DNA of 57,927 nucleotides, counting the filler, from Sphacelaria rigidula (Eukaryota), in the NCBI GenBank assembly GCA_964200075.2. It is 5 parts of 5 records of this genome, joined end to end, with 100 filler letters (N's around TTAATTAATTAA, not from the genome) between each part and the next. Parts side by side here need not be neighbours in the genome. Positions count along the whole stretch, not along the records: positions 1 to 11,506 come from CAXNAA020004850.1; 4 more parts are not named here. One strand, given 5' to 3'. The position numbers and the translations under genes are program-made. Position 1 is the first letter of the stretch, and each line of letters opens with the position of its first letter. The notes under the pieces are model-generated. The model saw only the letters and a program-made list of their open reading frames with translations, searched no databases and was not told the DNA's origin. This document shows, piece by piece, positions 1 to 23,112 of this stretch.

Positions 1-112
1 GGTGTGGTGTGGTCGTGGGGGGGGGGGGGGTGGGGTTGGGTTGGCGCGTACTCATTTGATGCTTGCCTTAGTCGTTTGACCATTGACCACGCCCCGTCTC
101 GAAAGATCAATA

Positions 113-270
113 GTCAAACGACTAAGGCGAGCAACAAATGAGTACTCCCCCACCCGAAAATGATCGGAGGCACTTGCGGACGGTGCTTCCCTCGGGTTTT
201 TGTCGCATACTGGCTAGCCTCCGCAAACCTCATTTCATTGATCAACCTCATTTTAGAGAATCCCCTGTTA
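113..270 (+). repeat. Left arm of ~160-bp inverted repeat bracketing contig 1
   Basis: Reverse complement of 11340-11504 aligns with few mismatches (e.g. ggcacttgcggacggt-cttccctcgggtttttgtcgcatactggctagcctcc). Confidence 0.9.
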
Positions 271-290
271 TGTCTATTCAACAAGCGGCA

Positions 291-390
291 TCTTCACTTC
301 ACGTCATGGGGCAACCTTCTTCACTTCACGTCATGGGGCAACCTTCTTCATACTTCACTTCAATTCATGAGGCAACCTATCGTCACTTCA
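291..390 (+). repeat. 27-bp tandem repeat (2 exact plus degenerate copies)
   Basis: tcttcacttcacgtcatggggcaacct repeated. Confidence 0.85.
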
Positions 391-1522
391 CTGCGGGGGC
401 ATCGTGGCTTCTTCACGTTGGCAAATCCGGGATAATCAGTGCCGTTGCTCGGCAGCAGTAGACATAACGATTGTGTACGATATTGTAACTATACGGGGCT
501 CACGCCTTGATTTTGTTTTGTCCGCCCTTCAACTACTTTAGTGTTTCGTCGCGTTTGATTCCTCCCTTCACAGTGACCTATGGTTCTATTTTATTTTTGT
601 TTATCTTCCACTACTTCCGTCTTCTGGGGGGGAGGTTGGGATTAATTTCATGCATTTCATCTGTTCTTGCACAACGACCCTTATTTAATTAGTTGATGGG
701 ATATTTGATTCGTTAAGCCATGTTATATATACCCGTTTTTGTCCCGCTACTGTTACACCGGTGTCTCCTATCCCTGTGTGCCTCTTTTCGCTACAGTACT
801 TTTGAAAGCACCACCTTCCATGCTGCACAAAAACATCAGACGAGCCCGCACTAACACTACGTCCCCCCGTCCGCCCCTGCCGCTTTTGCTGTTCGATTTT
901 ACTCGCCCCGAACTCACCCGCGCCATGCTACGGCTCATATCAAGATCGTCGGTGTCGCACCATACCATGCCGATGACCGGGGACTTCCTCCCTCATTGCC
1001 ATTTCGTATGTGCGGACACCCACATATGTCTGATTACCATTCTTACTATATCTTTTCCTCACTACCTTTTCATTTTTCACTGCCTCCACAAGTTATCACA
1101 TGCCGCCCTTCGATGATTGATACAGATGTCTTCTCCCAACAACCACTACGATATCCACGGTAGCAGCACCAACGCCGCTTCTGCAAACAATCTACAGGGC
1201 AGCGACTCCCGCCGCCCATCAGCGGGTCGAGCAGGTGATCCAGGGGCTGCTGCGCCCCATCACCCCTATTACCTACGCAGCGGCGTACCCCCCGACATCC
1301 AGGGGAGCGGCAGTGGAGGTGGCGCTGCCGGGGATCTCGACCCCCGGGCGCACACCCCAGCACCGTGCACCATAGAAGCCACGAGGATCTCGACCGTCGC
1401 TCCCCATCGATGCACAACAAGCAGGACAGTCGGGATACCAGGCTCTCGACTTCCCGCTTTCGGAGCCGCCACCGCTCTCGTTCCCGATCACGGACAGAGC
1501 GCCCTTCTCGCTCTCGCCCCCG

Positions 1523-1626
1523 CCGCTACCGCTACCGCTACCGCTACCGCTACCGCTACCGCTACCGCTACCGCTACCGCTACCGCTACCGCTACCGCTA
1601 CCGCTACCGCTACCGCTACCGCTCCC
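1523..1626 (+). repeat. (GCTACC)n hexamer microsatellite, poly(Ala-Thr) in Gag frame
   Basis: About 17 perfect units seen directly. Confidence 0.95.
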
Positions 1627-4543
1627 GCTCTCGCTGCCGCCGCTACCGCCGAAATTCTCGATCGCCCTCCCGCAGCAGGCGTCAACACTATGCCATTAGG
1701 TGGGGATCCCGGGAACGTCGCCACCACCGGAGGGAGCAAAGGTCGTACCAGCAGCAGGCGGATGCCGGGTGGCTAAGGCGCTGGGGTTGTGAAGCACTAG
1801 GAGCAGCAGTTGGAGCTGCGGTTCAAGGTCTGGAATCTAACCAGCTATCGAAGGTGAGCGAACAGGTACGTAGGCGTATTACGCGCGGTCGATCATGCCC
1901 AGTGAACGCAGGACCAAGTGCGGGGAAACTATCGGTTGTCATCAGCGCTGTCTTGCTGCAACACCGGATATGGTCGACGCTGCGTGCAATGGACCAGGGA
2001 GTCTTGAAACTGCCGGAGGATGAATACGTCAAGTAAGTGGATAACCCAGACAGATCAGTACTCCGCCCGCCGGCGCGAACTCCTAATCGAGCTGCTGGCG
2101 GAAACTAGTGATACGTTCACGTCCCTAACCTCAGCGGCTCGAGTAGAAGTTTGTCGTATCACGGGCGAAACCGATACCGTCCCACATGAATCCGTTACTA
2201 TGACCGACTCGCTATGGATCCTCGTCGGTGGGGAAGTGATGACGAACAGGGCCACGAAGTTTATACACGCTGCACTCGACTCCATCACCGTAGGACCCAA
2301 CGAATCGTGGAGTGCGGGAGCGGAACGGGTGTTGCTAGCATTTCGCGCGAGTTCAGCAAACCCGGACCGACCATACAGTACTGAAGCCACGTATTTCTGG
2401 CGATTCATCTCCGCCCGGCAGCTAAGCGAGCTTTACGATCGTACTATCCGAGTCGTTTCACCTAACCCGGTTGATAGGCTAGGTCTAATGTCGATCCTCC
2501 ATGAAAAAACACACGCTATCTGGGCCAGGCTGCAGCCTCTGAGGAGCGACTGGCACAGTCCAATGGGGTTAGGAATGCAAAGAAGGGGAGACGTAGCCAA
2601 GAGTCTGTACCAGAACTTCATACGTATCGTGTGCGCCCGCAACATGGTATACAGCGACGACATTCACGCTCGCCCCCAAACGCGTACTATCAACCACATC
2701 GCAGGACCTGACAGACTATTTTCACTTGAGGAAGTAAGGAACTTGCTACAGTCGCCCACGAAGGTCGCCGCCATGCTCCAGCAAGCTAACCTGGGGTCAC
2801 CTCCCTCCCCCGGAGTGCTGCCCGCCCTGTCAGCCCCTGCTGCGTTCTCTAGACCCCAGGCGTTAGGCGGCCACCAGTCGGCAGCAACTTCCGTCGTGGC
2901 TTTCAAGAACCACCTGGCGGCCTCACCGGTCTCACACGGCGTGCCCTTCATGCAGCAAGGTTCGACGCCCATCAACCCCGACCCTCGCGTCACGACTCCG
3001 AATCATACCGCCGCACCCCGCGCGGTAGATTTGCAGCACAAAGACCCGTCACCGCGATCTGGGAGCGCTTCGCCGTCACCGACACCCGCCGCATCCGGCC
3101 AGCCAGTTGGACCTGCCTCGACTCCCAAGCCATCCATACCGCCGATTGCGGCGGGACGTGACGCAGTGGTCACCCTCTTACATGATCGTGAAATCTGCTT
3201 CGGTTACGCATTCACCGGCTCGTGCCGTCACCAGGGCAACACCCCTTGTCCATGTACGCACGGTATCATCCCGGCCGCACACTACAGCGGCCTACCGGCC
3301 CGCCACAAGACGGCCATTCCCCAACGCCGGCTAGCCGCGCTCACGGAGGCATAATACTTGGCAGCAATCGACCTGGGTCTCGCCGGCGAAGGCCAAGACG
3401 ACGACGTCGAAGATATGCTAAGCGCATCCGTGAGCGAGGCCGCCGCTGGCGACACTCGAGCCGATGCGTGAAGACGCGCCCCGGGTGCAAATGACCTGGG
3501 GAACATACGCGGACCCAGCGCCACCACAATACCCCAGCGTCGCGGAAGCCAACTTTGGGTGACGGGCGAGATCTGGCACCGACGGCGTCTCCGTCGGCCG
3601 TGGCCGACAGAAGTCTTGTTGAACACGGGAGCGGGAGGTGGCAACTATATGTCAGGAGCGTTGTGCCGCAGCTTACGCAAGGCCAACATCTTGGGAAATA
3701 CGCCCAACCCTGAGGCGGCAGGTGTTCTCTGTGCAGCTAACCCATCCCAGAGTAAAGTCCGCCCAATGCGCATAGTCGGTTTCGTAACTGTGCCCTTGCT
3801 TTTAACCTCCGACTCACGGATCCGTAATGTACCATTACAAGAAGTGGAGGGCCTGCCGTACGGCTTCATTTTAGGTGCATATTATTTCCGGTACAATAAC
3901 AGTATTCTAGATTTCGTTCCAGAAAAAGGGTTCCGCCCCTCGCCAGCGGCGCCGTGGATCCCGTTCCTAACGTGCGAAAATCCTACCTACCACATTCAAG
4001 AAATATTAGTAACTCTGAACACCAAGATGGAAAGCACCGCCTCCCTAGCTGCGCCCGCTTGTCCGCCCATCCACAACTACTCCAGCTACCGTGAAATAGC
4101 TTGAGAAGACGACAGCAGCCTCGAGTAGAAGCTGCGCTTGGTCGGACAAACGACCATGCTCAGCGGCTTCGTCAGCGCCGCGGTAGCAACAGTCGCGATC
4201 GGTCCTCAACCACAGGATAGGCAGCTTGTGCTTCTACTCCCACAGGCAAAGTTCGATCTGGACAAGGGAGCAAAGGTGGGGATCGCAAAGGGAGTATCGT
4301 GGTGGCAGCCGGGGTCACCGGTGTACTGTAAATTTGTAAATAGAAGTAAGGAGCAGGTAGCGGTGAAGCCTACTGGCACTGTCGCGCGTATGATAACACT
4401 GAACATACGCGACCCCGCCAGGTTTCACTCAGTGTTTGACCCACATCCGTCTACGACAGACCCCTCCGTGGACCCCCCAACGCGCGCCTCACGTCCAGAC
4501 AGTAGTTGCCCGGCCCAACCAAACCCCAAGGTCAACGTGACGG

Positions 4544-4794
4544 GAGTCATCCTACGAGAGGGGGGGGGAGTATTTTGGGCCACTTCTTGCACGAAATTCC
4601 AAGGCATATCGCCGTTGAGATCAACAACGGTCGCTCGAGCGAGCTTGTTGTACATAAATAACGCTCATTTATAACGATTGACACCGTTCTGAACCAAATA
4701 CAAGCACATCTCGAGTGTGGCAAGTCGTCTGACATACTTTTGAGCCTTTTTTTTCGTGCAATCAAACACCCCCCTCCCTATCGTAGGATGACCC
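4544..4794. mobile_element. 251-bp MITE inserted in gypsy pol, 4-bp TSD (Sola-like by TSD/terminus)
   Basis: TIRs gagtcatcctacgagagggg / ccctatcgtaggatgaccc; TSD ACGG at 4540-4543 and 4795-4798; removal restores frame PKVNVT-DANMGQL. Confidence 0.85.
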
Positions 4795-7700
4795 ACGGAC
4801 GCCAACATGGGCCAGCTTGGAGCAGGGGAAAAGAGAGAGCTGGTAGACACGCTGCTCAGCTTTATCGAAGCTGGATTGTTCCCCACAGACCCCAAGTGGG
4901 TTCCCCCTTCTATCAACGGGTGAGCTCGAACTCCCCCTCACTAACGAGTCATGTACGCCATTCGTAGCTAAGCAACGCCGGTTTTCCCCGGAGGAACGTC
5001 ACATGATCCGCGAAGAGATGCACAAGCTCCTTGCTCGCGGGATCATTCGACCCTCGACCTCCCCGTGGGCAGCCCAATACCTATGCATGAAAAACAAAAG
5101 ACGGCACCTTGCGCTCGTGCATTGATTGGCGTGAACTGAAGAAACTCCCAGTGTCTGACAGTGGGGGTCTCGGGGATATACAATCCATTTTCGACGGCCT
5201 CAAAGGTAAGCGTTACTTCGACCAACTTGACATTGCCTCCGGTTTTCACCAAATCGAGATCGCGGAGAAAGACCGCTTCAGGACGGCATTCCGAGATGCA
5301 GATGGCCTCTTACACAAGCTTACACGAGCAGGCTTTGGTCAGACAACTCTACCCGCCGCGTTCACCCGTCGGGTAAAAGGTACGGTGAGACAGTTGGATG
5401 GGGTGCTCACCTGGCTTGACGACATCCTCATCGCGACCATATCCTGGGACGAGTATCTAGCTCTGCTCGTGATCGTGTTACAACGCTTGTTGGTCGCGGG
5501 ATTCTCGATGAACTTCGCCAAGTGCATTTTTGCATCGGCGTCGCAAGAGTTTCTGGGCATGCTGGTAGATAGCAGTGGCCTTCAACCCGCGCGCCGCTAT
5601 CGCTGAAATGCCCAGACTATCCACCGTCGAGGAACTACGTACTTTCCTCGGCCTCACAAGTACCTGCGCCAGTTCGTCGAGAGATAAAGCATAGTAGCCG
5701 CCCCACTAATCGACCTGCTCCGCAACAAAAAATTCGCAATCAAGCGAGCACGAAAGCTGTCCATAACGTGGAATATCGGGTAGGAGGAGGCATTCCAAGC
5801 CCTCAAAGCAGCCTTGTCCTCGCCGACGGTACTAGCCTTTCCCGATCCCAACAACGCGTTTGTACTACAGACAGACACAAGCGAGGTGGGTGCTGGGGCG
5901 GTGCGGGTGCAGCCGGTGGGGTGCAAAACACGCGCATCGTATCATTTGGCAGCCAGCGATTCTCTCGCAACGACTCGCGCAGAGCACTCACACCACGAGA
6001 GTGCATGGCTGTCTTGTGGACTGTCCAACACTCTAGATCATACTTAGCTTGAAGAAGGTTCACCTTAATCACTGACTGTTCGGTACTCATATGGTTGTTC
6101 CGTAGCCGCGATTTCTGCCCCAAGCTACACAGGAGGGCCCTGCGGCTAATGGAGTATGACATTGACCTCCAGTGGCGAGGAGGGTCTCAACATGTGCTGC
6201 CACATATGCATTGTCCCGACTCCCATACGCGAGTGAGCCACAGCCCGACATTGATGACTCCTTTCCGGACGATTTCTCGTCAGGCTCGCCGACAGAATTT
6301 GTAGGCCCACGGGGACCACAACTCGCAGGACAACGACTGTCGAAACTACAACCAGAAGGAGCGGGTACGTCAGTGAGCGCAGACACAAGTATGCACTCAT
6401 CGTTGAACTCCAACAACCCACCGGACATCGCAACCCTGAGGTTACTCCCTTTCTCAGAGTGCGCAGTCATCACCGATAACCAACCTGTGCGCCGTTCGAC
6501 TCGTACTCGCAGACCGTCAGTACTGCCTGCAACCCCCGATGTTGCGTATACAACATCCCTGCCCTTCACTCCTCAAGTGGTTGCCCCAAATCCGCCCGCA
6601 GAGCCAACACTGATCAAAGTACCGCTACAGGTGCCGACACCGATCGGTCCGCCGACAACAGGTGAGAGGGTAGAAGTGGGTGAAGTGCTCCTAGCTGGGG
6701 GAGAGATGCCAACGGAGTTAGCGGATCCGGACCTGACGGACACAACGGCGAACGCTCATGCACTACGGATACTCACCGACGTGAGCAATCTCCGGCATCA
6801 CCAACAAGGGGATTCCTTTCTCAAACAGGTACAGTCAGGTCTTGCAGGCAGTGAAACACCAGAGATGGTGGATGAGAGACGGTCAGACTACAAAGTAGAC
6901 GAGCGAGGTATGCTGTGGAACCGAGCAGGCGACGATAAGGAGCTGCTAGCTGTCCCGAAAACGATAGTAGCTGACTTGTTGGCACTCGTGCATGCACTCC
7001 ATGGACATGCTGGAGCAGGCGCTACCCTTGCTCTGATGTGCGACCGCTTCTATTAGCCTACTATGACGCGTGACACCAGACAGTTCGTGCTGTCGTGCTG
7101 TAGACGACGCAAGAAGGCAAGCAGCCGTCAAATGGCGATGAGACCGGGGCGCATTCTACACCCATGGGCCGAGTTAGAAATCGACTTACTAACCATTGAT
7201 GTGATGTCGCACTCGCGCAACAAGTACATTCTGCTGGTACTTGACCGAGCCTCCCGATCCCCGTTCGAGTTTCCTCTGCCATCAAAGGAAGCGGACGAGA
7301 TCGCACGCATCCTAGCAGAGTTATGCCTAACTTTTCGTGTCCCACAAATGGTCCGACGCGACAGGGGCAAAGAGTTCATGGCCGATGTCGTCACGCATCT
7401 GTGCAGGTGGTTGAAGGCGGACACCGCCTTTGGGCCGTCAGACCACCCACGCGGTCAGGGAGCGGTCGGGCGACTTGGGGGATGGCTGTTAGACACGCTA
7501 TCGGAACTATGTAGGCTGTGGCCCCAGAGGTGGGATGAATATGTCTCACCCGCCCTCTGGATCAAGTGCATATTGTCCGACACATCGCTCCCCTCTAACA
7601 TGTCCTGTTTTGAGCTGCTGTTCGGCCGCAAACCGCGCACATCGCTAGACTCGCTCGTGCCCCTCTCACAAGAAGCAGAACCGAGCAAGGGACTAGATGA

Positions 7701-9782
7701 CTTCGTTGAACAGCGCAAACAGAACCTCCGCGAGGTAAGGATGGCGATGGACAAACGGCAGGGGGCAAAAGCAGCGTCGCGGAAGAAGGGCAATGCAGCC
7801 ATCTGGAGACCATCAGTAGGCGTGCCGGTCACGGAAGGGGATCTGGTAATGGTGAAGGAGAGTGGGAGCTCCACGTATCGAGTGGCAGGGGTAGGAAGCT
7901 GCAGCACGACAGGAATACGGGACCTTGGATGGTGAAAAAGGTGCTGATGGTCGGACACAGTCTCGAGGGAGTGACGCAAGGACGAAAACTACTTACTCGC
8001 ATAGTAGCCCCGTCTGATGTCAAACCGTACCATGTACGGCCGCCGTACTTGAGGCACTCCATTGCCGACGAGTTCGCCCAGTTTGCATGGGGATCGGACT
8101 TCAAGATATCGTCTTCTCCTAACCCCACAACCCGCCTCCTTACCCCAGTGAACCGCCGCGAGGGTAAATCAGGGAAAGGAAGTGCAGGTTGGGAATACCA
8201 AGAAAGGACTCAGGAGGGGGCGACGTCGGAGTGGCTTCCGGAAAGCAGGTCTGGGAAAGCTTCACACCTCTGCGACTGGATGGGCTTCACGCACGCTGGT
8301 ACCTCTACCACCCAGCCGAGATACCAAGTACGCCGTCTCGCCCGAGCATACGCCATGCCCCCCTCTCACGCAGTGATGCCCTGAACTTGTTCCCCATAGG
8401 TTTCACGTTCTGGAAGAATTTCGGTGAGGTCAAGCAGAAGGGACAAGTGTTCGACTACGGCAAGCGCTTCTGGAGAGTGCGATACGACGACGGGGACTGG
8501 GAGGAGTTGTCACGAAGAGAACTCCAACAGCTAGCGCAGTCGAGCGAGACGGCAACACCGCCAGTCACGAGCTAGGAAGCGGCGTGATGGAAAAGTAAAT
8601 AAATAAAGAGAACGGCACTAGATGGGATAAAGCTTTGAGTATCAACCGTCTAACACAGTACCTTGAGAGTGTGCAGTCTGCATCCTTTTGTTTCCGGTTT
8701 TCGTTTTTTTTATTTATATATATAGTTTTGGGAAGGATATACGAGTCATTTCTTGAGTCTCTTTTGTTTTCTTCCTTTCTTCGCTCCCTTCCCCCTTCTT
8801 TTATATAGATATACACTTATGGCGGATGGATCTTGTTAGATCAGCCGTTTCTTTGTCTGCCCTGGGTTTCATAGCCTCTTTTGCTTGTTTCCTATGGCCA
8901 TTTTTTGTCCCATAGCGCCTACGCGGCTCCTCTGTTTCTTCACAGCTTGGTTTTCTCGTCCTGAATGGATGCGGAGTTGCGGTGCCCTTTTTCTCGCTGT
9001 GTAATATTGCTTCATATATATATATATATATATATATCCCTTTTTCTCTCTCTTTTTTTATATATTATTTCCTCTGTGGTCAGTCCTAGTTCCGACTCAT
9101 GTTTTTTTCCTTTTTGTCTCCGTGAATGCGGATCCGACTTCAGGGTGCTCCACTCTTTTCGAGTAGGAAACTTCATGTCGTAGAATTAGCATTGTACAAG
9201 AAGGGTGGGCACCGTGTACCTGCCTGGACATTGTATCGAGACAAAATTCTTGATCTGAGATGTAAGAACCCCCGGTATCCAGTAGGTCAGCGGTTGCTGG
9301 TCGACGGGTGAAGAGCCTACGCACTCCCATCAGCCAGCAAACGTATTGGGGCTTTTTTAGTGGGCCAGCTTTTTTCGAGTCCCAAACTACCCAGGGTTGG
9401 TGTAATCAATCAGGGGTGTCTACGCGCCGTTACCACTTGAAAATAGTTTTTGAATATCCTCAGTGGTTTCTGTTTCCAGTGTAACTGGGATCCCGGGACG
9501 ACATAGTACATGCGAAAGCACTCGCTATAATTCGAAAGGGCGTGGGAGATTATTTCCCCAAACAATGAGGCTTTTCCCCTGAATACCAGTTTCGGCCTAT
9601 CTTGTGATTTCAAGACGAGGTTTTCCCGTGGTCATCGCTAGCCCTGAAACTCCACGGTTTTCTTGTCTTTGGCGTAATATAAGGCTGATGGCATGTATCT
9701 GAGTGGATTTTCCCCGGTATGAAATAAGCCGTGACACTCCCTACTTTGCATTGAGCAGCGCGCACAAAGCAAGAGAGGGGGA

Positions 9783-9956
9783 TGTTACGGCGGATACCAG
9801 TCGCTTATATAGAAGGCGTTCTCGATGTGCGTAATATGAGCGATAGGTCGTAATCCAGTTGTACGTTATTCGGATTATATTCCAGTCGGGTTTCGCAGTA
9901 CGGTAGTACACCCCGGCCGGTCAATCGTTTTTAGCTACCTAGAAAGTCTAATAACA
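9783..9956 (+). mobile_element. Candidate 3' LTR of the gypsy element (174 bp)
   Basis: Polypurine tract AAGAGAGGGGGA (9771-9782) directly followed by TGTTA...TAACA inverted termini. No matching 5' LTR seen in the contig, so the right boundary is unconfirmed. Confidence 0.6.
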
Positions 9957-10611
9957 AAGCTATCAGCCACCACCTGGAGACATCTCACTTGCAAACAAGT
10001 CAAAAGCACTCTTCTGCACGTGAAAGTGAGTCCTGTTTGGTCTTATGATGCAGCGCTGATCGGACTCAAGGGTCTATTAGCCACGAGTTCGAGGTTCACT
10101 CCTCTCGGCTGCGATCGTTCATTGCGGCCAGCCGCTGGCTTCGTGCCACCCCTGGCCTGGTATGTTCCTTGAGAGTGATACCAGTATCACCTCGTGGCCA
10201 GACCACGACAGATGTAACGAAGTCCGTCACGTTCCGAATGTAGGCATCTGGTTTGGAACGTATCACGGTAGAAAGAAGGCGGGCAAGGGGCAAAGCAAAG
10301 GAAGATAGAGACGTGAACAAGCGTGCAGGCTGGAGATTGCACTGAGGCATGTTGGAAGCAAAAACAAAAACTGCCACCGATGAAAGCAAGCATTGAAGGT
10401 GGGAGAGGGCAGGATGAAAGTGGGACTATACATGGTGGAGAGGGGATTGAATGGGGAAAAGGAATGTGTAGTTATGATTCTTACCATAAACGGTGATTCA
10501 GTTTCCGGCTCCGCTTCTGGTAGCCGTGGGTCGGGTACCGTGTAGGGTAGGACTAGGTTTCTTCTTTCCGGGTGGAGAGTCGGTTTTGCTTGGTGGCGTC
10601 ACGGGGTCGCC

Positions 10612-11288
10612 TCAGGGAGAGGAGGGAGAGTAAGTATTGACTCGCAGTACTTTCCGAGGTGTGAAGTTGTCGTTTCTCGAGGCAAACGCCTCTTTCTCCT
10701 GCAACAAGTTCCGTTGGAAATCCGACAGGAGCTCGGCCCGGGTCTCGCAGAAGCAGTCATGACACGTTATACATTCTGGGTCATGATCCCCCGCCGACAG
10801 GTCAAACAGGTTTTTTTTTTGGCAGAGGTGGCTTTGCATTCGTAGCAAGGGTGAGTGTTCTCGTCCGCTCTGACGAGGGTCTTTGCGCAGGAGCGGCCGT
10901 CGGCGTTGGCGTATACCCTGTCTTTACCGCCGTTGGGGTCGGCCATGCGGTTGTACGGAGTGCTGATCCCGATGTCCACGCCACACGCAAGGCAGAGGAA
11001 GGGGACCTGTTTCCTGGCGCCCTTCAGGGCTGGCTTTGTCTCCTGGGATACAGACACGTGGGTAGTACACACGGAGCACCTGTCGATGTTGAACGAATTG
11101 GGAGAAGGACGAAGGGACGGTTGGGGAAAGTTTAGCGAGGAAAGTACGGAAGGAAACATAGTGTACTGTGGGCGAATGCGTGATGAACGGGTCTTCAAGG
11201 CAACGATGTCAAGTATAATAGGTGGAAAAGAAAGGAAGTGGGATAATAGGTTGCTTTCGGTAATCAGGTTACTCCTCGATGAACTCAC
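10612..11288 (-). pseudogene. Cys-rich putative zinc-binding ORF, frameshifted at a homopolymer (10811-10820)
   Basis: CSVC, CLAC, CYEC in 10767..11288 then CITCHDC and a helical tail in 10612..10848; no family recognised. Confidence 0.45.
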
Positions 11289-11339
11289 GGTGGAAAAACC
11301 ACCAGCCTGTCAGTAACTGTGGTATTCTATACAAGCGAG

Positions 11340-11504
11340 TAACAGGGGATTCTATAAATTGAGGTTAATCAATGAAATGAGGTTCGAGGAGGCTAGCCAG
11401 TATGCGACAAAAACCCGAGGGAAGTACCGTCCGCAAGTGCCTTCGAACATTTTCGGGGGGGGGGGGGGGGCATACTCATTTGTTGCTTGCCTCAGTCGTT
11501 TGAC
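11340..11504 (-). repeat. Right arm of ~160-bp inverted repeat bracketing contig 1
   Basis: Inverted match to 113-270; runs into the contig end. Confidence 0.9.
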
Positions 11505-11506
11505 CG

Positions 11507-11606
11507 NNNNNNNNNNNNNNNNNNNNNNNNNNNNNNNNNNNNNNNNNNNNTTAATTAATTAANNNNNNNNNNNNNNNNNNNNNNNNNNNNNNNNNNNNNN
11601 NNNNNN
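11507..11606. other. Artificial contig linker N44-TTAATTAATTAA-N44
   Basis: Identical 100-bp spacer with six-frame stop at all four joins. Confidence 0.99.
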
Positions 11607-11919
11607 CCATAAAAGTGGGTCTAAGGAGGCATACATAATTTGAGCTTTGAAATAATCAACACAGCATCTTTTTTTCATGTTCGAGCTGGCAGTGAAAAGT
11701 CACGCGGACTCGACCACGCGACGAGTAGTGAGAGATAAGAGAGAGGGCGACATCGTGTTACTGTTGTACTGCTGACTGTATTCCGGGTTGGTTGTGCTGG
11801 CTCTGATTGAAAGTGTGATCCAAGTCACCACGGTCGGGGTGGTCATGTGGCACAGGCCAGCCGCACGTGTTTTTGCCATTATCCAAGGGTATACATATCT
11901 TTTTTCCCGTAACATTATA

Positions 11920-12090
11920 TGACATCGCATGGCATCACAAAACATCACATAACATCACGTTACAATACATCACATTGCATAACATCGCATAACATAACAC
12001 AACATAACAAACATAATATTACGTAACAGTACATAACACTACACGGCATTACATTGCATAACAGTACATCACATCACATACCATCACAGA
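11920..12090. repeat. Degenerate pentamer microsatellite (ACATC/ACATA)
   Basis: Seen directly, intronic. Confidence 0.8.
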
Positions 12091-12096
12091 ACATAC

Positions 12097-15000
12097 CTGG
12101 AGACGCAGTTTGCTTTCGGTAGCCTTGTGTGCCAGAAGGGCAGCTCGGGCAGACTCCTTCAGAGCCACCATCTCCCCCTCCAGCTCTGTCACCCTCTGGA
12201 ACAAGAAAAAAAAGCGGGGACACGAAAAGTGGAGAAAAACTATATATATACATGAATAATAAGTATAACTATAAAATGAGGGACAATCCCCGCACCGGTC
12301 TGTAGCGGACAAATTACCAAATATCGTTGGTATGGCGCGCGCGCAAGGTGGGGTGGGGGGGACTATAAGACCACTTGTTTTGGCAACCAATTTCGATTTG
12401 TACAAATATGAGGATTTCAGTCCGTCTACAGGTGATTTTCTCCCGCGGATTGCATATTCGGATCCCAGTCCGTTGGGCAAATGTTTTTCGGCTTCATGTG
12501 AGAAAACCAGATCAATTCTTCGATTTTCTGGACGTTGACTTTTGATGTATCGCCTTCTTGCTCAGATCGGGACACTCCCGCATCTCCCCCGTTTGTTGAA
12601 AAAGTGGGGGACGATACGGGAGTGCCCCGATCTGAGCAGAAGGGTGATGGTCAACGTCCAAAGAATCGGAGAATCGATCTGGTTTTCTCACATGTAGCCG
12701 AACAACAATGCCCAACGGACTGGGGTTCGAAAAATCAATGCACGGGAGAAAATCACCCGTAGACGGACTGAAATCCTCACCCTCACACTTGTACAAGTCG
12801 AGATTAGTTGCCACAAAAGATTACCTAAGTGGGCAGCGTGCAAAAACCACACCCTGGACAATAGATTCTATCGTAAAAAAATGTACTGCGTACAGTATGG
12901 AATATAGTGTCTATTGCAATAGGCGCAACAGTCTATACTGTACGCAGTACACTTTTTGACTGTGTATTCTGTTGTCCAGGGCATGGCAAAAACCACGAAG
13001 TGTTGAATTTGGATGATGACTATCTGTGGAGATCGCCATTTTAGCATGTGCGGAGAGATTTCCTTTCATGACGTGTAACCTAGTGAACGGCTGTTACAGG
13101 GGTAGTTCCTGGGAGCCCCGAAACTTCAATATCTGTGCAGCGGGATCTGGGACCCCAAGGTAACAGGGATATTTCCAGCGTACTGCCGGCTATCCCTGGG
13201 GATCACTTCGACGTCGTTTTCGGGCTAACTCGCTTGCGCTCGTCGAGCTATCCCGAGGGATCCACTTGCCTACACCCCACGACTCACGGACAATCCTTTA
13301 CTACATAACACGAGGAAAATCATCGGCCACCTTCGACGGTTCCTACCGTCACCGGGAGTTTCACGACCTATACATATCCCTGTGAAAGGCGGGGAAATTC
13401 GCACAAATTTGGAGACGTCGGACAGATCATGATCCGTTTCAGAAGTACTTCCTCTCAGTGTAGCATCATCATCCGGATCGTTCGCCCCCCCCTTTGCATG
13501 TTTGCTCCGTACAGCGCCCGACCCCGAGCACGCCGAGTAGCGCAAAGGTTGCGTGTTGGCTTCTCTGACCCCGCGGTCACATATATTGTGTTTTTAGACC
13601 AACGGATCTGAGAGCCTTCCACACCCTGGACAATAGATTACATCGTCAAAAAATGTACTGCATACAGTATGGGATATATCGTCTATTGCAATAAACAATA
13701 GATCCCATACTTTTAGGTAGTACATTTTTTGGCAATGTAATCGTTTGTCCAGGGTGTGGCGCCTTCTCTCATTAGAACAGTTATCTCAGACGGATCATGC
13801 ATGATCTGCCCTACATGTGCGAGTTTTCGTAGAGAAGTGATCAATATATCATATACAAATTGATGGGGACGGGGGGGAGCGGGCGAAGACAAAAATATGT
13901 TGCGGGAAAAAAATAACGTCGTACATGATATCCGATTTTTCTTCCGCTTGTGTTATCGCCGTTATTTAGCCTCAACCAGCCGAACGCGTGAGACGGACCA
14001 ATCCGCCCGAAAGCCAATGGATAGTTACACTTGAGTTGCTGTGCACTGCAGACCAGAAACGCACCAGAAAAGCATTCGTAACTCAAGATGAATGAATGAA
14101 TGCGCCAACACGATGTATACCTGGAGGTGAGCTTCCGCCTGAGCCTTCGATTCTTCTGTGGCCGCCTCCAGACGGATCAGCTTCAAACGCAGATTTTCCA
14201 CCTGTGTGAGATCGCAGCAACGAAGCCATGATGCCCCACGACAAGGTGGATTGGTTTGGTTGATTAGTGTCACGCGCTTGAGTAACTGACACGCCACGCA
14301 TCTATCATCTATTGGTTGTATCCGAGGCAAATAGCAGCGCTCGTGAAAGCAAACTGGAAAATTACTCAAAATAAACACATACATACGCTGACTATAACAA
14401 ACGCGACTGGACTTCACACACACCACTGGAGTATTACACAGCTCAAGTCTTACACACACAAGTGGAGTATGACACACACAGCTGGAATATAACATACACA
14501 GCTGGAGTGTAACACACGCAACTGGGGTATGATATACAGACACACAGACACACCTCTCCTTGCGCCTTGTGTGCTCTCTCCTCGGCCGAAACCGCCGCAG
14601 CCTCCGCTAACCTCCGACGGTTCTCGGCGTCCCGGCACGCATTTTCCGCGTTGGCCGCGCGGTCGGTCAGCGACGCCTCCGCTGCCCTCACGGCTTCCTG
14701 TCTCCGCCTCATCTCTTCTTGCAGTGACCGAACCTTTTTTGTTTGTGTTTTAATTGCATTCATCATCACATTATGTAGCGAAAAAGTAATACTCGCAACA
14801 GGAAAAAAACAGCAAACCACAAAATCGACTACAAACGAGCACTATTGATTATTTTATTTATTACCTCATGATACACAGTTGATATTAAATATCATATGGA
14901 ATACTATACAGAATATTATGTAGAGCTTACCAGAGATAAGGCAGCATTTTTTCTTCACTCATATACGTGTACATACAAATCGAACATATAGTTTTTCTCT

Positions 15001-16038
15001 CACTTCTTTGGGTTTTCTTTCTTCGTCATTATTTCTCTGCTTTTATTGTTCTACTTTTTTTCCCCCGCGTGTTTTCTTCCTAGTGTTCTTCATCTCACCT
15101 GGCGCAGGAGAGGCGCTGTAGACTCGTGAGCTTCCGCCTGAAGAGCTTCTGCACGAGCCACGGCATCCTTCCACCTGCCTCGATGAAAAACGAAAAGTAC
15201 GTAGGACGTACGTTTGTACCGCAACTAGATCAATATACCGTACAGTATTCCAGGGATGTATTCAACAATATAGGGTATACCCGAAAGTGGGGCATTCATG
15301 GTTGGCATACGAAAACCATACTAAAATTAATAGGGCTGTGAACTGGACCAGTTTGTACTGGCAGTTAAACTGGAACTGGTGATGAGGAGTCCGGTTTATC
15401 CAGTTTATTTGAAGCTTGCCGTTACCGGCTATGTTTATACCATTTTTAGTATGGTTCGTTTATAATGAAAATGCTTACATGATTACGAACAAAATGACAA
15501 TAATAGGATTGGGGTCTGCACCTGACAACAGTACACGTGCTCACAGTACAGTACAGTACTCGTGGTCACTACACCTTGAAGTGGTATTGCAGACATATGC
15601 CAGGTTTATCGTTTCATAGCACAACATACATCTGGAATAAAAAATAGACCACAAACGGTAATCCGCCACCACAAAATATAAAGTACAACATGGCTTGCAA
15701 TTCAACTGCATGCGTCCTTGTGGGTCCAGACGTCAATAATTTTACGCTCTTACTTCCGCGTGTTGCCCAGCCTTGGCTTGTTTGCATCGTCCTCTCCTCA
15801 CGGAGACGGATAGTCTGCAGCTGCATATTACAGATCAATGGATTTCGAATCGCTCACCGCTTCGAATGCGATTTGAAGGTCATCCGAGAGTGCCCCCCAA
15901 AGAAGTAATTCGAGACCGTATGCCCCTTTTTTGAATCCTGGAGTCTTTCGTATGTGTGTGTGTGTGTGTGTGTACTAGATCTGATACATAATTTAAAATA
16001 AAAATGAATAAAATAAAACGAAACAAAGAATAAAATAA

Positions 16039-16069
<31 letters not shown>

Positions 16070-18283
16070 TTGAAATTCGTGTTCATGGAGCTTTCATTTT
16101 TCGCAGACCTTCGGAGCCAAGTAAGGCCAAGTCATATTCATGGGTTTCGGCTATACATTGCACAATACACTTCCATGACAAGAACAACAATAGACAAATA
16201 CCACAATGCTCTGCAATGCTTGCTTTATCAAGCTAGACGCAACTATCTGCACCGTCAATTTGCGCCCAATGTACGTCGCATCTTGTGGTAACGGATAGGG
16301 CCAACAATCATGGGCACTACCTCACCCAAGTCGCCCCAAAATGACTATTTATTGAGCGTTTCTTAATGTGAAGAAAAACAAAATCCTGCGACCGCCGAAG
16401 GGGGGGGTACATAGGATCTCGGAGGGTTTTTTGTCGGGCATCCCTGTGTCATCCAAGACTTTAAGCTCCTCAATGTGAGGGGTCACATTTTCTACGAATT
16501 TCCACATTCTTGAAGGAAAAACGAGCCAAATACCGCAACTTTTCTCGCCTCCGGCGGCGCTCCCGCGGGGCCCTCTCATCAGCCGGGGGGGGGGGGGGCG
16601 TTGGCGGCTCGCGGCTTAGCCGATTAACTGGAAAACAATCGATGTACTGGCCGCTGGCGCTACCAGATTAAACTTATCTGGTCAGAGCAGCCAGTTTACA
16701 GCCCCAAAAATTAAGCTCTTGCTTTTTATGCGTTTTTTTTCCAAAAAAACTCATGCGTCTCGTTCAAAAGGGGGCATTTTTAAGCGGCAACCCCGCCGAG
16801 GCGTTACAATGACTCAATTTTCGTTTGGAAGACAGAAAAAACAAGTACCCATAATTTATGCGAATTACATGCGCGCATGAAGAGGAAAAGTCTAACCGAA
16901 ACGTATCTTGAACATTCCGATATGGTCCCACAGGGTGTCTATGGAGCCCTGTTCCCAACACTCCGGTACGGTTCGGAAGGGTATTATTATTCAACGGTCG
17001 GACGAAATAGTGATTCGTCGGGAAATGACTATAAAAGTGATTCAGTGTAAGTGATTCGTACAGTACGAATCAATCCTCAAGCTTTGTCTTCAGCGTTGCA
17101 ACCCGCGTACGCGCAGCAGCCAAGGCACGTGGAACGGCGCAAAGATTGTGTAGAGACCAGTTTGACCAGCCGACAACTCTTTTTTCTCTTTTTCGAGCAG
17201 TCAGGCCGAAAAATTCGTAGATTTGGTGATTCGAACTGGCGATGATTCATCTGAACCCTGGTATTATTTGCCTGTAAAGTACCTATTTTTATCCTTCTGT
17301 AAAGACCCACCCCCTAAAATAGGAATTTCAGACGGTATACCGGGTCGTGAGTTCAAATCTCGGACCGATACCTGGGATTCCGTCATAACATGCCCAACAT
17401 TGCAGCGCGACCATGTCGTGGATACACAAAATTCGACTGAACGGTCGACGAGGGAAAGGGACTGCATGCTGGACCCCTCTCGCGATAAAAAATAAAGGTG
17501 AGCACCACAGAAGGAAGGTGAATAACTACAACAACAACAAAAACTCCTGTGTTGGCCTTCCCTCTTCCTGTGTGACCCCGGCTGGTGCGTCCACATGTAC
17601 CGAAAGGTGAAGACCGGCGTCTATTTTCAAGCCCTGCAGACAGGTGCACTTTTGGTGTATTTTTTCCCCTTAATTTTAGGCTACATGACTTACGGGGCCA
17701 TCTTGTCTCACGCTCTGAGAAGCCAGCATTTCTTCTTTACTTGATTTCAGAGATCAAATTTTCTGCTTGCATTTCGCTGGGCATTCGGGTGCGTTCCGGT
17801 TCTACTTTCCGTGTTTGGAGTGTTCGGAGTGCATACACTCTACACGCTTTCCGCGCTGTGTGGAATAGGGGTGGGGGTTCCGTTTGCTACTACGCGATGG
17901 GTTCCGTTTGGCCGTCCGAGATGACACCTCTCAAACACAACGATATTTTTCAGGGCTCTTTACGTCACATGTCACAATTTTCATTACACGTCACAACTTG
18001 ACGTTACACGTCACAAAATTCTTCACACGGGGAGCCCTCTGTCAAGTCGAGTCAAATCAAATTAAGCGTCGGGCCTGGCTAGTACTACGGTGGGGGAACA
18101 CGTAGGCCCCCACCGTACAGGTCGTAGTATTAGCCTGGCTCAACTTGTGACGTGTAACGAACTTTGTGACGTTTAACGTAAAGAGCCCTGATATTTTTCG
18201 GGTCGTTTCTGAACTTGAAAGTTGAACTGCATCATGCCACCAATGCCCAGTGAGAGGTAAATCGGAACTGTCCGAAACGGCAG

Positions 18284-18316
<33 letters not shown>

Positions 18317-18861
18317 CGTCGTCTTCATATTAAAAACCGTTCCGATATCTGCGCGGTACATTCGTGCTGGGCATCTGATGCGGACGCCTTCCGTGGTCAC
18401 AGGCTAGCAAAATACGAAAAAACAAAATAGACCAAGATTATAACTAACAAAACGCGATACACGCAAAAACAGGGGAAAATAATGAAGAAGAAAGAGAATA
18501 CATATGGCTAACCTCAGAAGATCCGGTGCCGGAGGAGGCCATTCGGACTTCAGGGGGTGGCACCCGGCTTTCCAACTCAACGCGCGACGCCAAGTAGAAA
18601 TGAACACAGGGTCGGACTACGGGCGAGACTCAAGGCCCCAAATACCGCCACCCAAAGAACTAAGAATCGCAACGTTCCATCTTTCGGCCTCTTGAGGGAC
18701 AGCCATACGTACGTAGTGTGTGATCGAAAAGAGGGCAATAATGCCGTTGATGTCCCCGCTCGGGCCTGATCATGGCGGCAAAATGGTCAAATTCATTGCC
18801 GCTTCATGTGTTCTTGGTTGGCGGTCAATTCGTTTCTTGGTGGTCAAATTCGTCGCCACTA

Positions 18862-18893
<32 letters not shown>

Positions 18894-21800
18894 CGTATGT
18901 GTGTGTCCTCGGTATGCGGGGGCGGTCAATTCCTCAGCTTCACCTTTGATTGTGATGGGTTGTGTTGAGCCTTCGTACGTACCCCCATCATCCATGTTCC
19001 TCTTCGGGCTGAAAACGAAACAAGAAAATAAGTTTTTTTTTTTTGTGTAATGGGCATCGATTTTACATGAAAACTGAGCCGGCATCATGCTCATATGACA
19101 ATCAGAAGATAGGGGGGAAAACATTATCGCCGCTCTCCATCAACCGTTTGACGGCGAGAAAAGTAGGTCATTCGTTGAAGCGGCATCAGTTTCACTCAAT
19201 GAAAGTACCCATGATCTAGATTGACTACCGTGCTCAGCTGGTGAGAGCCGCTACGGCTTCTTCTCCAAACTATGACCTTTGCAAGGGCAGGTCGAGTAGG
19301 GTATACTCAATTGCGGGGTATTTTGAAAGACGTACTGGGGGTCCTCAAATGAGGGTAGAGTGTTGGGAGTCGTACCCAAAATATAACTGGAAAGCGATTC
19401 CTAAAACCCTACCCCCAATGTATGTACTCCAAGTACGACTTTCAAAATACCCCGCAATTGAGTATACTCTACTCGACCTGCCCTTGGACCTTTGCCATTA
19501 CGCAACGCACACAGCTATCACCGGTGCTCATGTATCTTGACTGTCATCCACTGATCGTGGTGGAGAAGCCACCGAAACTCGTGTACATACTTAGTGTCCA
19601 GGGTGTGTACAGCATTTAGAATTCGCAACGCTGCCGCGCCCCAGCGGTACGAATTGAAATGATCCGACTGTTGTCACCATTAGGGGGGAGGGAGAAGCGG
19701 GTTCGATTCCCGCGACACGCCTCGGATTTTTTAAGGGCACTTATTGTTACACGTCACAAAATTCGTTACACGTCACAAGTGAAGCGTCCGGCCAGGTCAG
19801 TACTACGGTGGGGGACCGCGTGGGGATCCCTGTTCGAAGTCAAGTAAAATCAAGACTCCCTACGTGGTTCCCCACCGTACTACCAGTCATGGCTGAACTT
19901 TTGACGTGTAACGAATTTTGTGACGTGTCACGAATTTTGTGACGTTCATAAACGAAAATGCCCTGGGTTTTTTCTTCCAAGTATCTGAGTTCCACCGTCG
20001 AAAGCGTGAGTACGTGAGTAAAACAAAAAAAGTACCTGACTAATACAATGAGTTTTGTCCGAAGGCAATGGTTGACGCGGTGCGGGAGTATAGTGCTGGT
20101 CATGATCCAATACGCGAGACCGAAAATGCAAGGAAGGCGTGTACCCGGAGGAGAGAGACATGGGTTGATGGTTCATCCCTTGAGACCACTGACTCGTCCC
20201 GAGGAAGAGGAGAGGTTTCGAGTGCGACAAACAAACAAAAACAAGAACAAAAAGTATCCCTGTACAAGGTACTGTATTGGGATCCTACGTAAATTATTAC
20301 ACATCTCCTGCGGGCGGGCGAATTGCTTTCTACAAGCACTTGTAGGCGCCATTTCAAGGCAAGGTCAATCTCTGAACGAAGTACGACCATGACCTATATT
20401 GGTTGTTAATTATGTCCTCAGTCGGTGGCTCTGCGGTGCCCACTGGTGTCTGTATCCACTCTGCTGCCCTGAACCCCTGGGGCTTTGTCTTTTTCCATTT
20501 TTTTTTTCTTTAGTTATTTCATTTTATTTTATTTCCTTCTTTAGACCGACCTTTTCTTCCTGTGCGTTGCTTTTCTTGACTTTTTTATTCTATATCTTTG
20601 TACGTCTCAGTCTACTACGTCGTCCCTAGTATATGTTATAACTGTCAATTCTTCGACTGCGAGGGTAGTCCATCTGGATCATGCATACTTCTTTCAATAA
20701 AAAATTGGTGCCAACTCGCCAGATGACCTCTCGACGTCTTAGGGTGAACACCGTCGGCCCAAGGACCAAAGCATACTGTGCCCCGATGGCCAATAAATAA
20801 CGTGTACACCTTAAAAAGAGCCGGTTGGGCCGGAAAGGTCGAGGGTTCGAATCCCAGGACATTTAATATGTTATCCAGTACACTTCTTGTCTATTTCATT
20901 CATCGACCATATATTGTCCAGGGTGCGATCCATATATATATATATATACATATAGTCTTCTAAAAGAGTACAGCATCTGAATTTCCATCTTTGAAAACAA
21001 TAGAAAACGAGAGCGTCGAAAGTAGCAACTTAAAATCGACAATAACATCGTCGAAGACCCAAGGACGTGTACACGTAGTCAGTAAACAAATGAAGACATA
21101 TCTGACGAAAAACTTCGTATGTGGTTTGGAAAGTGCTGATCCAATCCACGCCTTATATTTTCCTGATGCATGTGTTACACTCCAGTGGTGCATGTGTGTC
21201 ATACTCCAGTTTCTTGTTATTCTTTTCATCATATTGTGGTTGGTTCTGCAGGGTATATACCAAGGGTCGGACGAATGAATGATTCGTCTCGAAATTACTT
21301 GATCTTCGTGTGATTTTGTTCGGTACGGTACGGTACAGATCAATCCTTAGGCTTTGTTTTCAGCGTTACAACCCAGGTACGCGCAGCCCAGGCACGTGGA
21401 ATGGCACAATAAATGCGGGGAGACCTTTTTGACCAGTGGTCAACTTTTTTTTTTCTTCTCTCTTTCGAGCAACCAGGCCTGAAAAATCGTGTGGAGTTAT
21501 TTGGTGATTCGAACCGGCAATGATTTGTCCAAACCGTGGTATATACCCGGAAGTGCTGGGGGAATTCCTGGTTGGCCTACTACACCACTGTGTAATGTGT
21601 ACCGAACATTCCGGTATGGTTCTTTCTGCAGGGTATCGAGTCCTGTTCCGAACACTCTAGTATGGTTCGGAAATGTCATCTACCAACGACATAAGCTCCT
21701 TACTACTTCTAAAATGCCCTTCTTTTAGAGCGTCATACCCTACATACAGAACACAACCCTGCAATTCTCCATGATACGGAAGGTCAGGCACCTACAGTAA

Positions 21801-22659: not shown

Positions 22660-22757
22660 CTGGGACGCGGGGGACACAGGAAACGAGCAACGACGGAGTC
22701 AAACCAACAAACAAGGACACGAGTGATTCCACGATAACCTCCCGCCCCAAACCAGCA

Positions 22758-23024
22758 GTGCTCCGTCTCGGAAGAGGTGCGTAATCAATGGTCAAACGAC
22801 CAAGACAAGGAACGAATGAGTACGCCCCCACTCCCCCCCGAGAGCAACTAGCCTGGTCCGGCGAAGCCCCGACGTGCTCCGTCCCGGCTTCGTGGGGATG
22901 CGAGGTCAACGGTCTTATGACTATGGCATGCAAGATCATGAGTACCCCCCCCTTCCTCCCCCCTGCTCCGTCTCACAGGGATGCGCGGTCAGTGGTTGAA
23001 CGACTGAGGCAAGCAACAAATAAG

Positions 23025-23050
<26 letters not shown>
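22758..23050. repeat. Three tandem copies of the structured ~70-nt C-run-associated repeat
   Basis: (g)tgctccgtc...gagtac units at 22758-22823, 22874-22945, 22964-23025, each followed by a C-rich run. Confidence 0.9.
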
Positions 23051-23055
<5 letters not shown>

Positions 23056-23112
23056 ACGGGTTTTTTACCCCCCGTCTCCAGGCCGTGACACCACAAACAA
23101 AGTAAACACCCC

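Follow-up and report, generated by a model that had tools for sequence, protein, structure and literature searches.

Results

Gene and repeat content of the first contig

The window, i.e. the whole stretch of DNA analysed here (57,927 nt from Sphacelaria rigidula, assembly GCA_964200075.2), consists of five contigs of 11506, 11506, 11505, 11505 and 11505 bp, split by N-runs and linkers. The artificial spacer that follows the first contig (CAXNAA020004850.1) returns as the same 100-nt sequence at 23113-23212, 34718-34817 and 46323-46422. Its 12-mer is its own reverse complement and provides stop codons in all six frames. A preliminary description had presented most of the first contig as a gypsy retroelement and an oppositely oriented Cys-rich ORF enclosed by inverted termini of about 160 bp. 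The features that we recognise in this contig are listed in Table 1.

Table 1. Features of the first contig and of the adjoining spacer, in positions of the window.
Feature	Coordinates	Strand	Basis or composition
First contig, one complete assembly contig	1..11506	no strand	N-runs, linkers and inspected contig ends
Small foldback	17..155	no strand	G-rich run 17-44, module forward 45-92, module reversed 93-146, C-run 147-155
Left arm, inner 115 nt	156..270	-	Similarity to right arm breaks off between 270 and 271; segment end ...CCCCTGTTA
Gag-like region	1117..3354	+	ORFs 1117-1776, 1239-2036 and 2008-3354
Decayed Ty3/gypsy pol	3547..8575	+	Protease region, RT, RNase H, integrase and C-terminal Tudor, in three frames
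257-bp MITE within pol	4541..4797	no strand	28-nt TIRs, 86%, ending in G/C runs
RVT_1	5091-5606	+	Pfam, E 9.5e-12
RNase H (RT_RNaseH)	5573-6052	+	Pfam, E 3.3e-5
Integrase_H2C2	6166-7056	+	Weak Pfam match
rve	7057-7935	+	Pfam, E 5.8e-7
PTM_DIR17_Tudor (PF21743)	ORF 8168-8575	+	E 5.1e-8, 33 bits against a cut-off of 27.2
Separate repeat of higher copy number, between pol and Cys-rich ORF	9217..10203	no strand	Word depth
Cys-rich ORF with several CxxC pairs	10615..11159	-	Two frames, 11159-10770 and 10812-10615
Right arm, inner 115 nt	11340..11454	+	Inverted copy of 156-270
Right arm, outer part	11455..11506	+	G-run 11455-11470, then module start, truncated by contig end
Artificial spacer	N44 11507-11550, TTAATTAATTAA 11551-11562, N44 11563-11606		

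The gag-pol region is an old, decayed copy of a Tudor-type Ty3/gypsy element that lacks LTRs and carries a MITE insertion. RT, RNase H and integrase follow one another in Ty3/gypsy order on one strand and are colinear with intact polyproteins. Five intact homologues (1521-1647 aa), which have the same Pfam set as the pol of the window, aligned by tblastn to 3547-8542 in 8-9 pieces spread over three frames and separated by a 257-bp insertion; the gag-pol is thus not full, contrary to the preliminary description. The homologue protein alignments skip from about 4540 to 4798 at the MITE, and contigs without 4540-4796 were present in three of four public sequencing runs. The Tudor domain PF21743 occurs in six of 29 homologues among those listed, and over the integrase ORF the identity with Ectocarpus proteins is 46-62%. 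With an E limit of 1, Pfam matched none of the gag-like ORFs, capsid and zinc-knuckle domains being those sought; a (GCTACC)n microsatellite lies inside this region at 1523-1628. The pol alignment gave 31 pattern matches in viral contigs, none of which was confirmed.

As had been reported, there are no paired LTRs: comparison of 1-1300 with 8400-11506 by repeat search and by blastn, down to word size 7, returned no direct LTR pair, only the arms and one 50-nt module stretch at 32-81 and 11456-11505, which is the sole direct repeat linking the contig ends. The Tudor-type gypsy lineage has already been published for Ectocarpus, where Gypsy-10_Ec32 has 636-bp LTRs and a 4-bp TSD, according to extracts of the article (Genome Biol 2025, PMC12477816). 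Compared by description with these extracts (PMC12477816), the window copy resembles this brown-algal Tudor Ty3/gypsy element in its RT, RNase H, integrase and C-terminal PTM/DIR17-type Tudor domain, whereas it is without an LTR pair, is split over three frames and bears a MITE.

Downstream of pol, the separate repeat at 9217-10203 had a summed word depth of 6k-57k, compared with 0.3k-4.5k in the bin 8559-8887, and loose contig ends were found at 10163. The Cys-rich ORF does lie on the minus strand and read inward from the right arm, as described previously, but it is split over two frames, the break being near an A/T homopolymer at about 10811-10820; the family member P0032 aligns to both frames. 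Neither a Pfam match nor a word-index homologue was found for this ORF, its Atlas scores of 0.81-0.83 are leads only, and a search with the Cys-family protein P0030 matched P0030 alone. An AlphaFold2 model of the Cys-rich protein, built on a 7-row alignment, was too poor for a fold search (mean pLDDT 51, pTM 0.40). To judge from its sequence, the ORF is a pseudogene copy from a small unannotated protein family, which occurs in multiple copies and is of minor interest to transposon specialists.

Anatomy of the inverted arms

The inverted copies themselves are real: 113-270 matches 11504-11340 in inverted orientation with 88.5% identity over 165 nt (blastn, E 2e-56), and a repeat search resolved the match into 147-270 with 11340-11463 (124 nt, 93%) and 113-155 with 11462-11504 (43 nt, 88%). 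A 32-mer is common to both arms, for an expected number of chance matches of 0.00, and the arms are separated by a 7-nt indel and about 10% divergence. Each arm is made up of an outer part, consisting of a G-run and a module of about 70 nt, and an inner part of 115 nt, whose only two copies in the window are those of the arms. A 24-nt core of the inner arm had no match in the metagenome contig collection. Similarity between the arms ends exactly at their inner edges, i.e. between 270 and 271 and between 11339 and 11340, and since the arms end sharply there, the repeat bodies face outward from the contig. Just 2 nt separate the end of the right arm from the first linker, and the left arm begins 112 nt after the contig start; for this reason, the proposed unit 113-11504 is essentially the whole contig 1-11506.

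The left end is more complex than noted earlier: besides the direct copy of the right-end module at 32-81, it contains a hairpin in which 38-86 and 107-155 are inverted copies (88%) around a 20-nt loop, 38-155 being self-inverted by blastn. Both halves of the foldback match the module in the metagenome contig L001. An Rfam search of 1-11506 (E up to 1) returned sub-threshold hairpins at 51-142 (mir-3910, 55.9 bits where the gathering score is 95; RNA-OUT, 32.3 where it is 41), which in our view match the foldback by chance. No tRNA gene was predicted by ARAGORN anywhere in the window.

Dispersal of the module and its position at contig ends

The module occurs at about 11 sites in the window, three in the first contig, five in the second, two in the third and one in the fourth. 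Three of the ten contig ends (both ends of the first contig and the left end of the third) lie inside a module or at most 16 nt from one, the chance of at least three of ten contig ends being at a module amounting to 9e-4; a fourth end, the right end of the second contig, is about 60 nt from a module. Another contig, the third, has a 64-nt palindrome at its end. In the second contig, the G-run and module form the 74-nt TIRs (80%) of an element of about 0.9 kb at 22146-23053. A 21-nt core of the module matched one metagenome contig, L001, where its flanks differ, and had no match in viral contigs or in genome contigs.

We compared positions 1650-11506 with Logan contigs at least 90% alike from four public runs, which, as the best-matching ones, may include the source sample of the assembly and are not fully independent of it. 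None of the sequencing runs listed as containing the sequence is an RNA run. Joints and loose ends are given here for the best-supported cases, beyond which there were 1587 loose ends and 43 joints. In every run, the last bin (11191-11506) had 14-19 times the summed word depth of the next-highest bin, and word depth in the interior was very uneven. Hundreds of contigs per run contain the module in other contexts or run past the contig end. Among the best-supported cases, each run has 94-333 contigs that enter the module at 11455 out of dissimilar sequence (agreement 0.40-0.47) and 159-246 that extend past 11505; the latter share a consensus (0.74-0.79) matching the rest of the module as found at 81-106, in the second and fourth contigs and in L001. 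Likewise among the best-supported cases, three of the four runs have joints exactly on 11340, coming from 4792 (+26 nt; X3 and X4) or from 10032 (+18 nt; X2).

Discussion

Origin of the inverted arms

We consider it very probable that the region is an ordinary repeat mosaic with assembly breakpoints, in which the arms are copies of an abundant repeat at contig ends and no new mobile element is involved. Positions 1-11506 are one small unplaced contig from a repeat-rich, brown-alga-like genome, and the arms are two opposite-oriented copies of a composite dispersed repeat comprising a 115-nt terminal segment, a G-run and the module. The defined ends of both copies point into the contig while their bodies run outward past its ends; the contig would have ended on both sides because the assembler could not cross this abundant, hairpin-forming repeat. 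The interior is a mosaic of a frameshifted Tudor-type gypsy copy with a G-run MITE of the same type, a higher-copy repeat and a frameshifted copy of the Cys-rich gene. The chances are roughly even that the 115-nt segment terminates another transposon; more tentatively, an LTR may have its 3′ end there, with a terminus of the TG..TA type that certain gypsy families of Ectocarpus display. It had also been proposed that two ends of one abundant repeat family flank the retroelement by chance. The observations support this reading, except that the flanking would not be pure chance, since the assembler probably broke the contig within that repeat. The following count against our explanation: the 115-nt segment is seen in the two arms only and meets the G-run at the same position in both, the left arm is oriented as a 5′ LTR of the gag-pol would be, and from each arm an inward-reading ORF starts at a distance of about 0.2-0.85 kb. 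The import of the locus is limited, as it amounts to a decayed copy of a published gypsy lineage between abundant MITE-bearing repeats, framed by assembly breakpoints.

An unlikely but still ordinary alternative would have this gypsy family's own LTR end, on its 3′ side, in the 115-nt segment, a G-run MITE having inserted into the ancestral LTR. The left arm would then be the element's own 5′ LTR truncated by the contig start, its own 3′ LTR would have been lost, and the right arm would belong, as a solo or 3′ LTR, to a sister copy that lies inverted past the end of the contig. The left arm does share the orientation of the gag-pol, with 846 nt between its end and the first gag-like ORF, and the segment terminates in ...TGTTA, in line with the non-canonical TGT-ATA and TG-TA termini of gypsy LTRs of 231-636 bp in extracts of the Ectocarpus library (PMC12477816). 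However, no direct copy of the segment is found downstream of pol, no TGG-type primer-binding site was seen by eye after 270, the sequences beyond the inner edges of the two arms are unrelated, and the outer part of the arm is a MITE TIR, not LTR sequence. Less probable still is an assembly artefact in which repeat reads were attached to the contig ends by a chimeric or fold-back join. In favour of an artefact, the left-end hairpin is a head-to-head fusion of two truncated modules, the third contig also ends in a palindrome, and the contig is small and unplaced; but the arm divergence and indel resemble diverged genomic copies and not one duplicated sequence, and the inner arm has no mirror image in positions 1-16. 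The low-depth exact-match contigs from the runs cover interior segments only (8087-8395, 8556-8796 and 9502-9706), the arms lying outside them.

Least credible of all is the composite 11.4-kb TIR-bounded unit of the preliminary description, in which the arms would act as TIRs mobilising the retroelement and the Cys-rich gene together. It is just as doubtful that the arm cassette recurs around the same gag-pol and Cys-ORF interior at other loci as an 11-kb inverted-repeat-bounded moving unit, which, if true, would mean that a gypsy-derived retroelement and a Cys-rich gene are carried and moved as one. The likeness of the inverted arms (88-93%) and the inward-reading ORF downstream of each would fit such a unit. 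Its boundaries are nevertheless contig ends, its sharp termini are the inner and not the outer edges, 159-246 contigs of each run, among the best-supported cases, carry the repeat on beyond the right end, the module recurs in hundreds of contexts, and a further module copy lies in the 112 nt outside the left arm. Moreover, pol is decayed, and the interior depth is uneven as a mosaic of different repeats would give. Outside the right arm there is no sequence in which a TSD could be seen, because the arm abuts the contig end and the linker. Nothing points to the 11.4 kb moving as one unit. Pfam comparison of 53 ORFs, out of the 101 with 60 aa or more, gave matches to RT, RNase H, integrase and Tudor only; there was no transposase beyond the retroelement integrase, no DDE transposase and no tyrosine recombinase. 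DIRS elements encode a tyrosine recombinase, and in these 53 ORFs the lack of such a match led us to drop a DIRS reading, as the lack of a separate transposase did for a Ginger reading. With either group, the likeness is superficial, namely a gypsy-type integrase or a retroelement together with inverted repeats. As described in extracts of the source (PMC2836005), Ginger elements are without RT and have TIRs with outer termini and TSDs, whereas the present locus has RT, and its inverted copies are directed outward and stop where the contig does. More generally, where small contigs are joined by linkers of N and TTAATTAATTAA, repeats at contig ends can pass for element termini.

A family of MITE-like elements with G-run ends

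Judged by sequence, the module serves as the TIR of MITE-like elements that are very abundant and end in G/C homopolymers. The short, TIR-bounded, many-copy dispersed pattern is seen in the G/C-run elements of the window, i.e. the 74-nt and 28-nt TIR pairs and the foldback at 17-155. Extracts of the Ectocarpus TE library (PMC12477816) list unknown7-N1_Ec32, a non-autonomous TIR element with C-rich termini. Likened to such MITEs by description, not by sequence, the elements found here (22146-23053, 4541-4797 and 17-155) are also short, bounded by inverted repeats and provided with G/C-homopolymer ends and with internal tandem and inverted sub-repeats, and are very abundant and dispersed. Transposon specialists may note, as a minor point, that the assembly appears to be broken by a G-run MITE family of very high abundance. 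Nothing clear in the way of a TSD was seen at the other module copies of the window or in L001; the copy in the fourth contig is flanked on both sides by GGTTTT(T)GG, a possible duplication of 8-9 nt.

Inverted arms at both ends of the first contig

Inverted copies had been proposed at the two ends of the first contig of the window, c1 (1-11506), and these proved to be real and far beyond chance. A repeat search of the window returned two inverted pairs, 147-270/11340-11463 (124 nt, 93%) and 113-155/11462-11504 (43 nt, 88%), which blastn merged into a single alignment of 113-270 with 11504-11340 (88.5% over 165 nt, E = 2e-56). The arms have a 32-mer in common, for which 0.00 matches were expected in shuffled sequence. 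Their alignment, flanks included, contains one 7-nt indel, located in a C/G run, and the likeness stops abruptly at 270/271 and 11339/11340, directly after ...CCCCTGTTA. Each arm consists of two parts: an outer part made of a G-run followed by a dispersed repeat of ~70 nt, hereafter the module, and an inner part of 115 nt (156-270 and 11340-11454) that has just these two copies in the window and meets the G/C run at an identical position in both arms. Just inside the left arm, 285-346 is a ~27-nt tandem duplication in two to three copies. No LTR-like direct repeat was found by the repeat search, by blastn or by word-7 blastn of 1-1300 against 8400-11506, all of which showed nothing but the arms and a direct copy of 50 nt (32-81/11456-11505), in agreement with the earlier observation of inverted termini in place of paired LTRs.

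A decayed gypsy copy and a Cys-rich gene lie between the arms

The Pfam domains of the retroelement include a Tudor domain C-terminal to the gypsy integrase, which intact homologues have too. Searching with the integrase ORF gave 29 proteins, of which the best are 59-64% identical to it and four named Ectocarpus proteins 46-62%; among the matches are several intact polyproteins (1521-1647 aa) that have the same domains, Tudor included. When five intact polyproteins were used in tblastn, pol was placed at 3547-8542, split into 8-9 pieces that occupy all three frames, with breaks near 4.9, 5.1, 5.6-5.9, 6.2, 7.9 and 8.2 kb and a gap at ~4540-4797 corresponding to a 257-bp MITE insertion; the preliminary description of a "full gag-pol" must therefore be abandoned. 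The gag-like ORFs (1117-3354) had no Pfam match. A (GCTACC)n microsatellite of ~17 units (1523-1628) lies in a gag-like ORF and reads as Ala-Thr or Arg-Tyr depending on the frame. Just after the pol stop, 241-nt contigs from four of four public sequencing runs match 8556-8796 exactly at low depth, which suggests that the homology shared within the family stops near the end of pol and hence that this copy is missing its 3' end.

In a 2025 Ectocarpus paper (PMC12477816), a Tudor-bearing gypsy lineage is described for Ectocarpus and presented as the first TE with a Tudor domain. Its supplement lists Gypsy-10_Ec32 with 11,528 bp, 636-bp LTRs and a 4-bp TSD, and other gypsy families with LTR termini TGT-ATA or TG-TA (PMC12477816 supplement). 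By domain order and Tudor fusion, the c1 element belongs to this brown-algal lineage as described there, but its copy departs from it with respect to the LTRs.

The Cys-rich ORF (minus strand, 11159-10770) codes for 130 aa from its ATG with several CxxC pairs. A phmmer scan revealed six relatives (P0030-P0035, E 2e-15 to 1.5e-4), of which P0032 can be aligned with this ORF and also with the next frame (10812-10615), indicating that the window copy is frameshifted, near an A/T homopolymer. The relatives' family, of ~160-185 aa, conserves the CxxC pairs and a PY.RM.DP.GG-like core, and corresponds to 10615-11159 (-) in the window; it is unnamed and matched nothing in Pfam, and the predicted model (pLDDT 51) was too poor for a fold search. 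Of the 101 stop-to-stop ORFs in c1 that reach 60 aa, 53 were scanned against Pfam; they gave only retroelement domains above noise, and neither a DDE transposase nor a tyrosine recombinase. Ginger elements, which have TIRs and an integrase-like transposase without RT, do not fit c1 with its RVT_1 domain, and neither do DIRS elements, which carry the tyrosine recombinase lacking in these 53 ORFs.

The module is a terminal repeat at which the assembly apparently breaks

About 11 module sites are found across c1, c2, c3 and c4, and a scan of metagenome contigs yielded one further copy, in contig L001, with different flanks. The downstream flank of the module in L001 (172-235) is 86% identical to the first 64 nt of c3 (23213-23276), indicating that the module belongs to a longer repeat in some copies.

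Coordinates of domains, module sites and spacers
Feature	Contig	Position	Strand	Remark
RVT_1	c1	5091-5606	+	Pfam
RNase H	c1	5573-6052	+	Pfam
Integrase zinc domain	c1	6166-7056	+	Pfam, weak
rve	c1	7057-7935	+	Pfam
PTM/DIR17-type Tudor domain	c1	ORF 8168-8575	+	Pfam, 33 bits vs cut-off 27.2
Module	c1	45-92	+	part of foldback
Module	c1	93-146	-	part of foldback
Module	c1	11471-11506	+	truncated by contig end
Module	c2	22040-22081		
Module	c2	22161-22239		
Module	c2	22758-22829		
Module	c2	~22875-22950		placed by eye
Module	c2	22964-23038		
Module	c3	23213-23220		first 8 nt of contig = last 8 nt of module
Module	c3	32249-32304		
Module	c4	40934-41007		
Spacer		11507-11606		N44 + TTAATTAATTAA + N44
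Spacer		23113-23212		N44 + TTAATTAATTAA + N44
Spacer		34718-34817		N44 + TTAATTAATTAA + N44
Spacer		46323-46422		N44 + TTAATTAATTAA + N44

In c2, a ~0.9-kb element (22146-23053) is bounded by 74-nt inverted repeats (80%) of G-run plus module, and in c1 a G-run and a C-run enclose two truncated modules in head-to-head arrangement (17-155), a small foldback; the module is therefore the TIR of MITE-like elements whose ends are G/C homopolymers. The c2 region (22029-23066) has a G-run of ~30 nt, three tandem reversed modules on the right side, A-rich/T-rich flanks around the element and a 6-N gap at 22082-22087. The MITE inside pol (4541-4797) has 28-nt TIRs ending in G/C runs, and contigs without it occur in three of the four public runs.

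The four 100-nt spacers are identical, and their central 12-mer, which equals its reverse complement, creates a stop in all six frames. They are thus artificial joins between small length-sorted contigs (11506, 11506, 11505, 11505 and 11505 bp), and features seeming to span or abut them are concatenation artefacts. The right arm ends 2 nt short of the first spacer and the left arm starts 112 nt from the start of c1; the span 113-11504 is essentially the whole contig. Three of the ten contig ends (c1 left, c1 right and c3 left) lie inside or at most 16 nt from a module, and a fourth (c2 right) is ~60 nt from one. Modules make up 1.3% of the window, and the probability that at least three of ten ends would by chance come within 20 nt of a module is 9e-4; this repeat is evidently a point where the assembly breaks.

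The arms abut other sequences in public sequencing runs

Of the words sampled from 1-10000, a fraction of 0.17-0.36 is present in five runs from two studies, one of these runs being labelled algae metagenome. Comparison of 1650-11506 with the Logan contigs of four runs at a likeness of at least 90% gave 9,487-22,503 matching contigs per run, the majority 90-95% alike, and c1 as a whole is therefore repeated sequence; the Cys-rich ORF region is multi-copy. The interior, along which word depth is very uneven in the four runs, is a repeat mosaic, not a coherent element. In the last bin (11191-11506), summed word depth, which is not a copy number, was 14-19x that of the next-highest bin in every run.

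Joints and loose ends are given for the best-supported cases, beyond which there were 1587 loose ends and 43 joints. Among these cases, 94-333 contigs per run enter at 11455 from sequence that differs from the inner arm (agreement 0.40-0.47, the G-run excepted), which gives the module hundreds of other contexts. Also among them, 159-246 contigs per run go on past 11505 with a single consensus (agreement 0.74-0.79), so that the repeat extends beyond the contig end. This consensus supplies the rest of the module as in c2, c4 and L001. Likewise among the best-supported cases, joints lead to exactly 11340 from 4792 (26 nt between, runs X3 and X4) and from 10032 (18 nt between, run X2), indicating that 11340 is a true repeat terminus abutting other sequences elsewhere.

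Of the two explanations offered in the preliminary description, a TIR-bounded composite of 11.4 kb now appears very improbable: such a unit would need outer termini and TSDs, there is no sign of either, and the defined termini are the inner edges. The other, two ends of an abundant repeat family flanking the retroelement, is favoured by the many contexts of the module and its continuation past 11505. The arms, which resemble the ends of MITE-bearing dispersed repeats, are two oppositely oriented copies of a single composite repeat, with defined termini facing into the contig and bodies extending outward; these bodies lead into an abundant MITE that forms hairpins and that the assembler presumably failed to get through. 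The 115-nt segment may be the 3' end of an LTR of the present gypsy family, given that the left arm is oriented as this would require and that the segment terminus is TA-type, like some Ectocarpus LTRs, or else an unrelated transposon may end in it. The arrangement is ordinary under either origin of the segment.

Foldback-type repeats seem common in the source genome. Imperfect palindromes occur at 12378-12816 in c2 (~440 nt, 79%) and 39596-40082 in c4 (~490 nt, 77%), and a 64-nt palindrome (34654-34717) forms the very end of c3. Near the start of c2, 11908-12108 is a degenerate CATCACATAA-like satellite with a 10-nt period.
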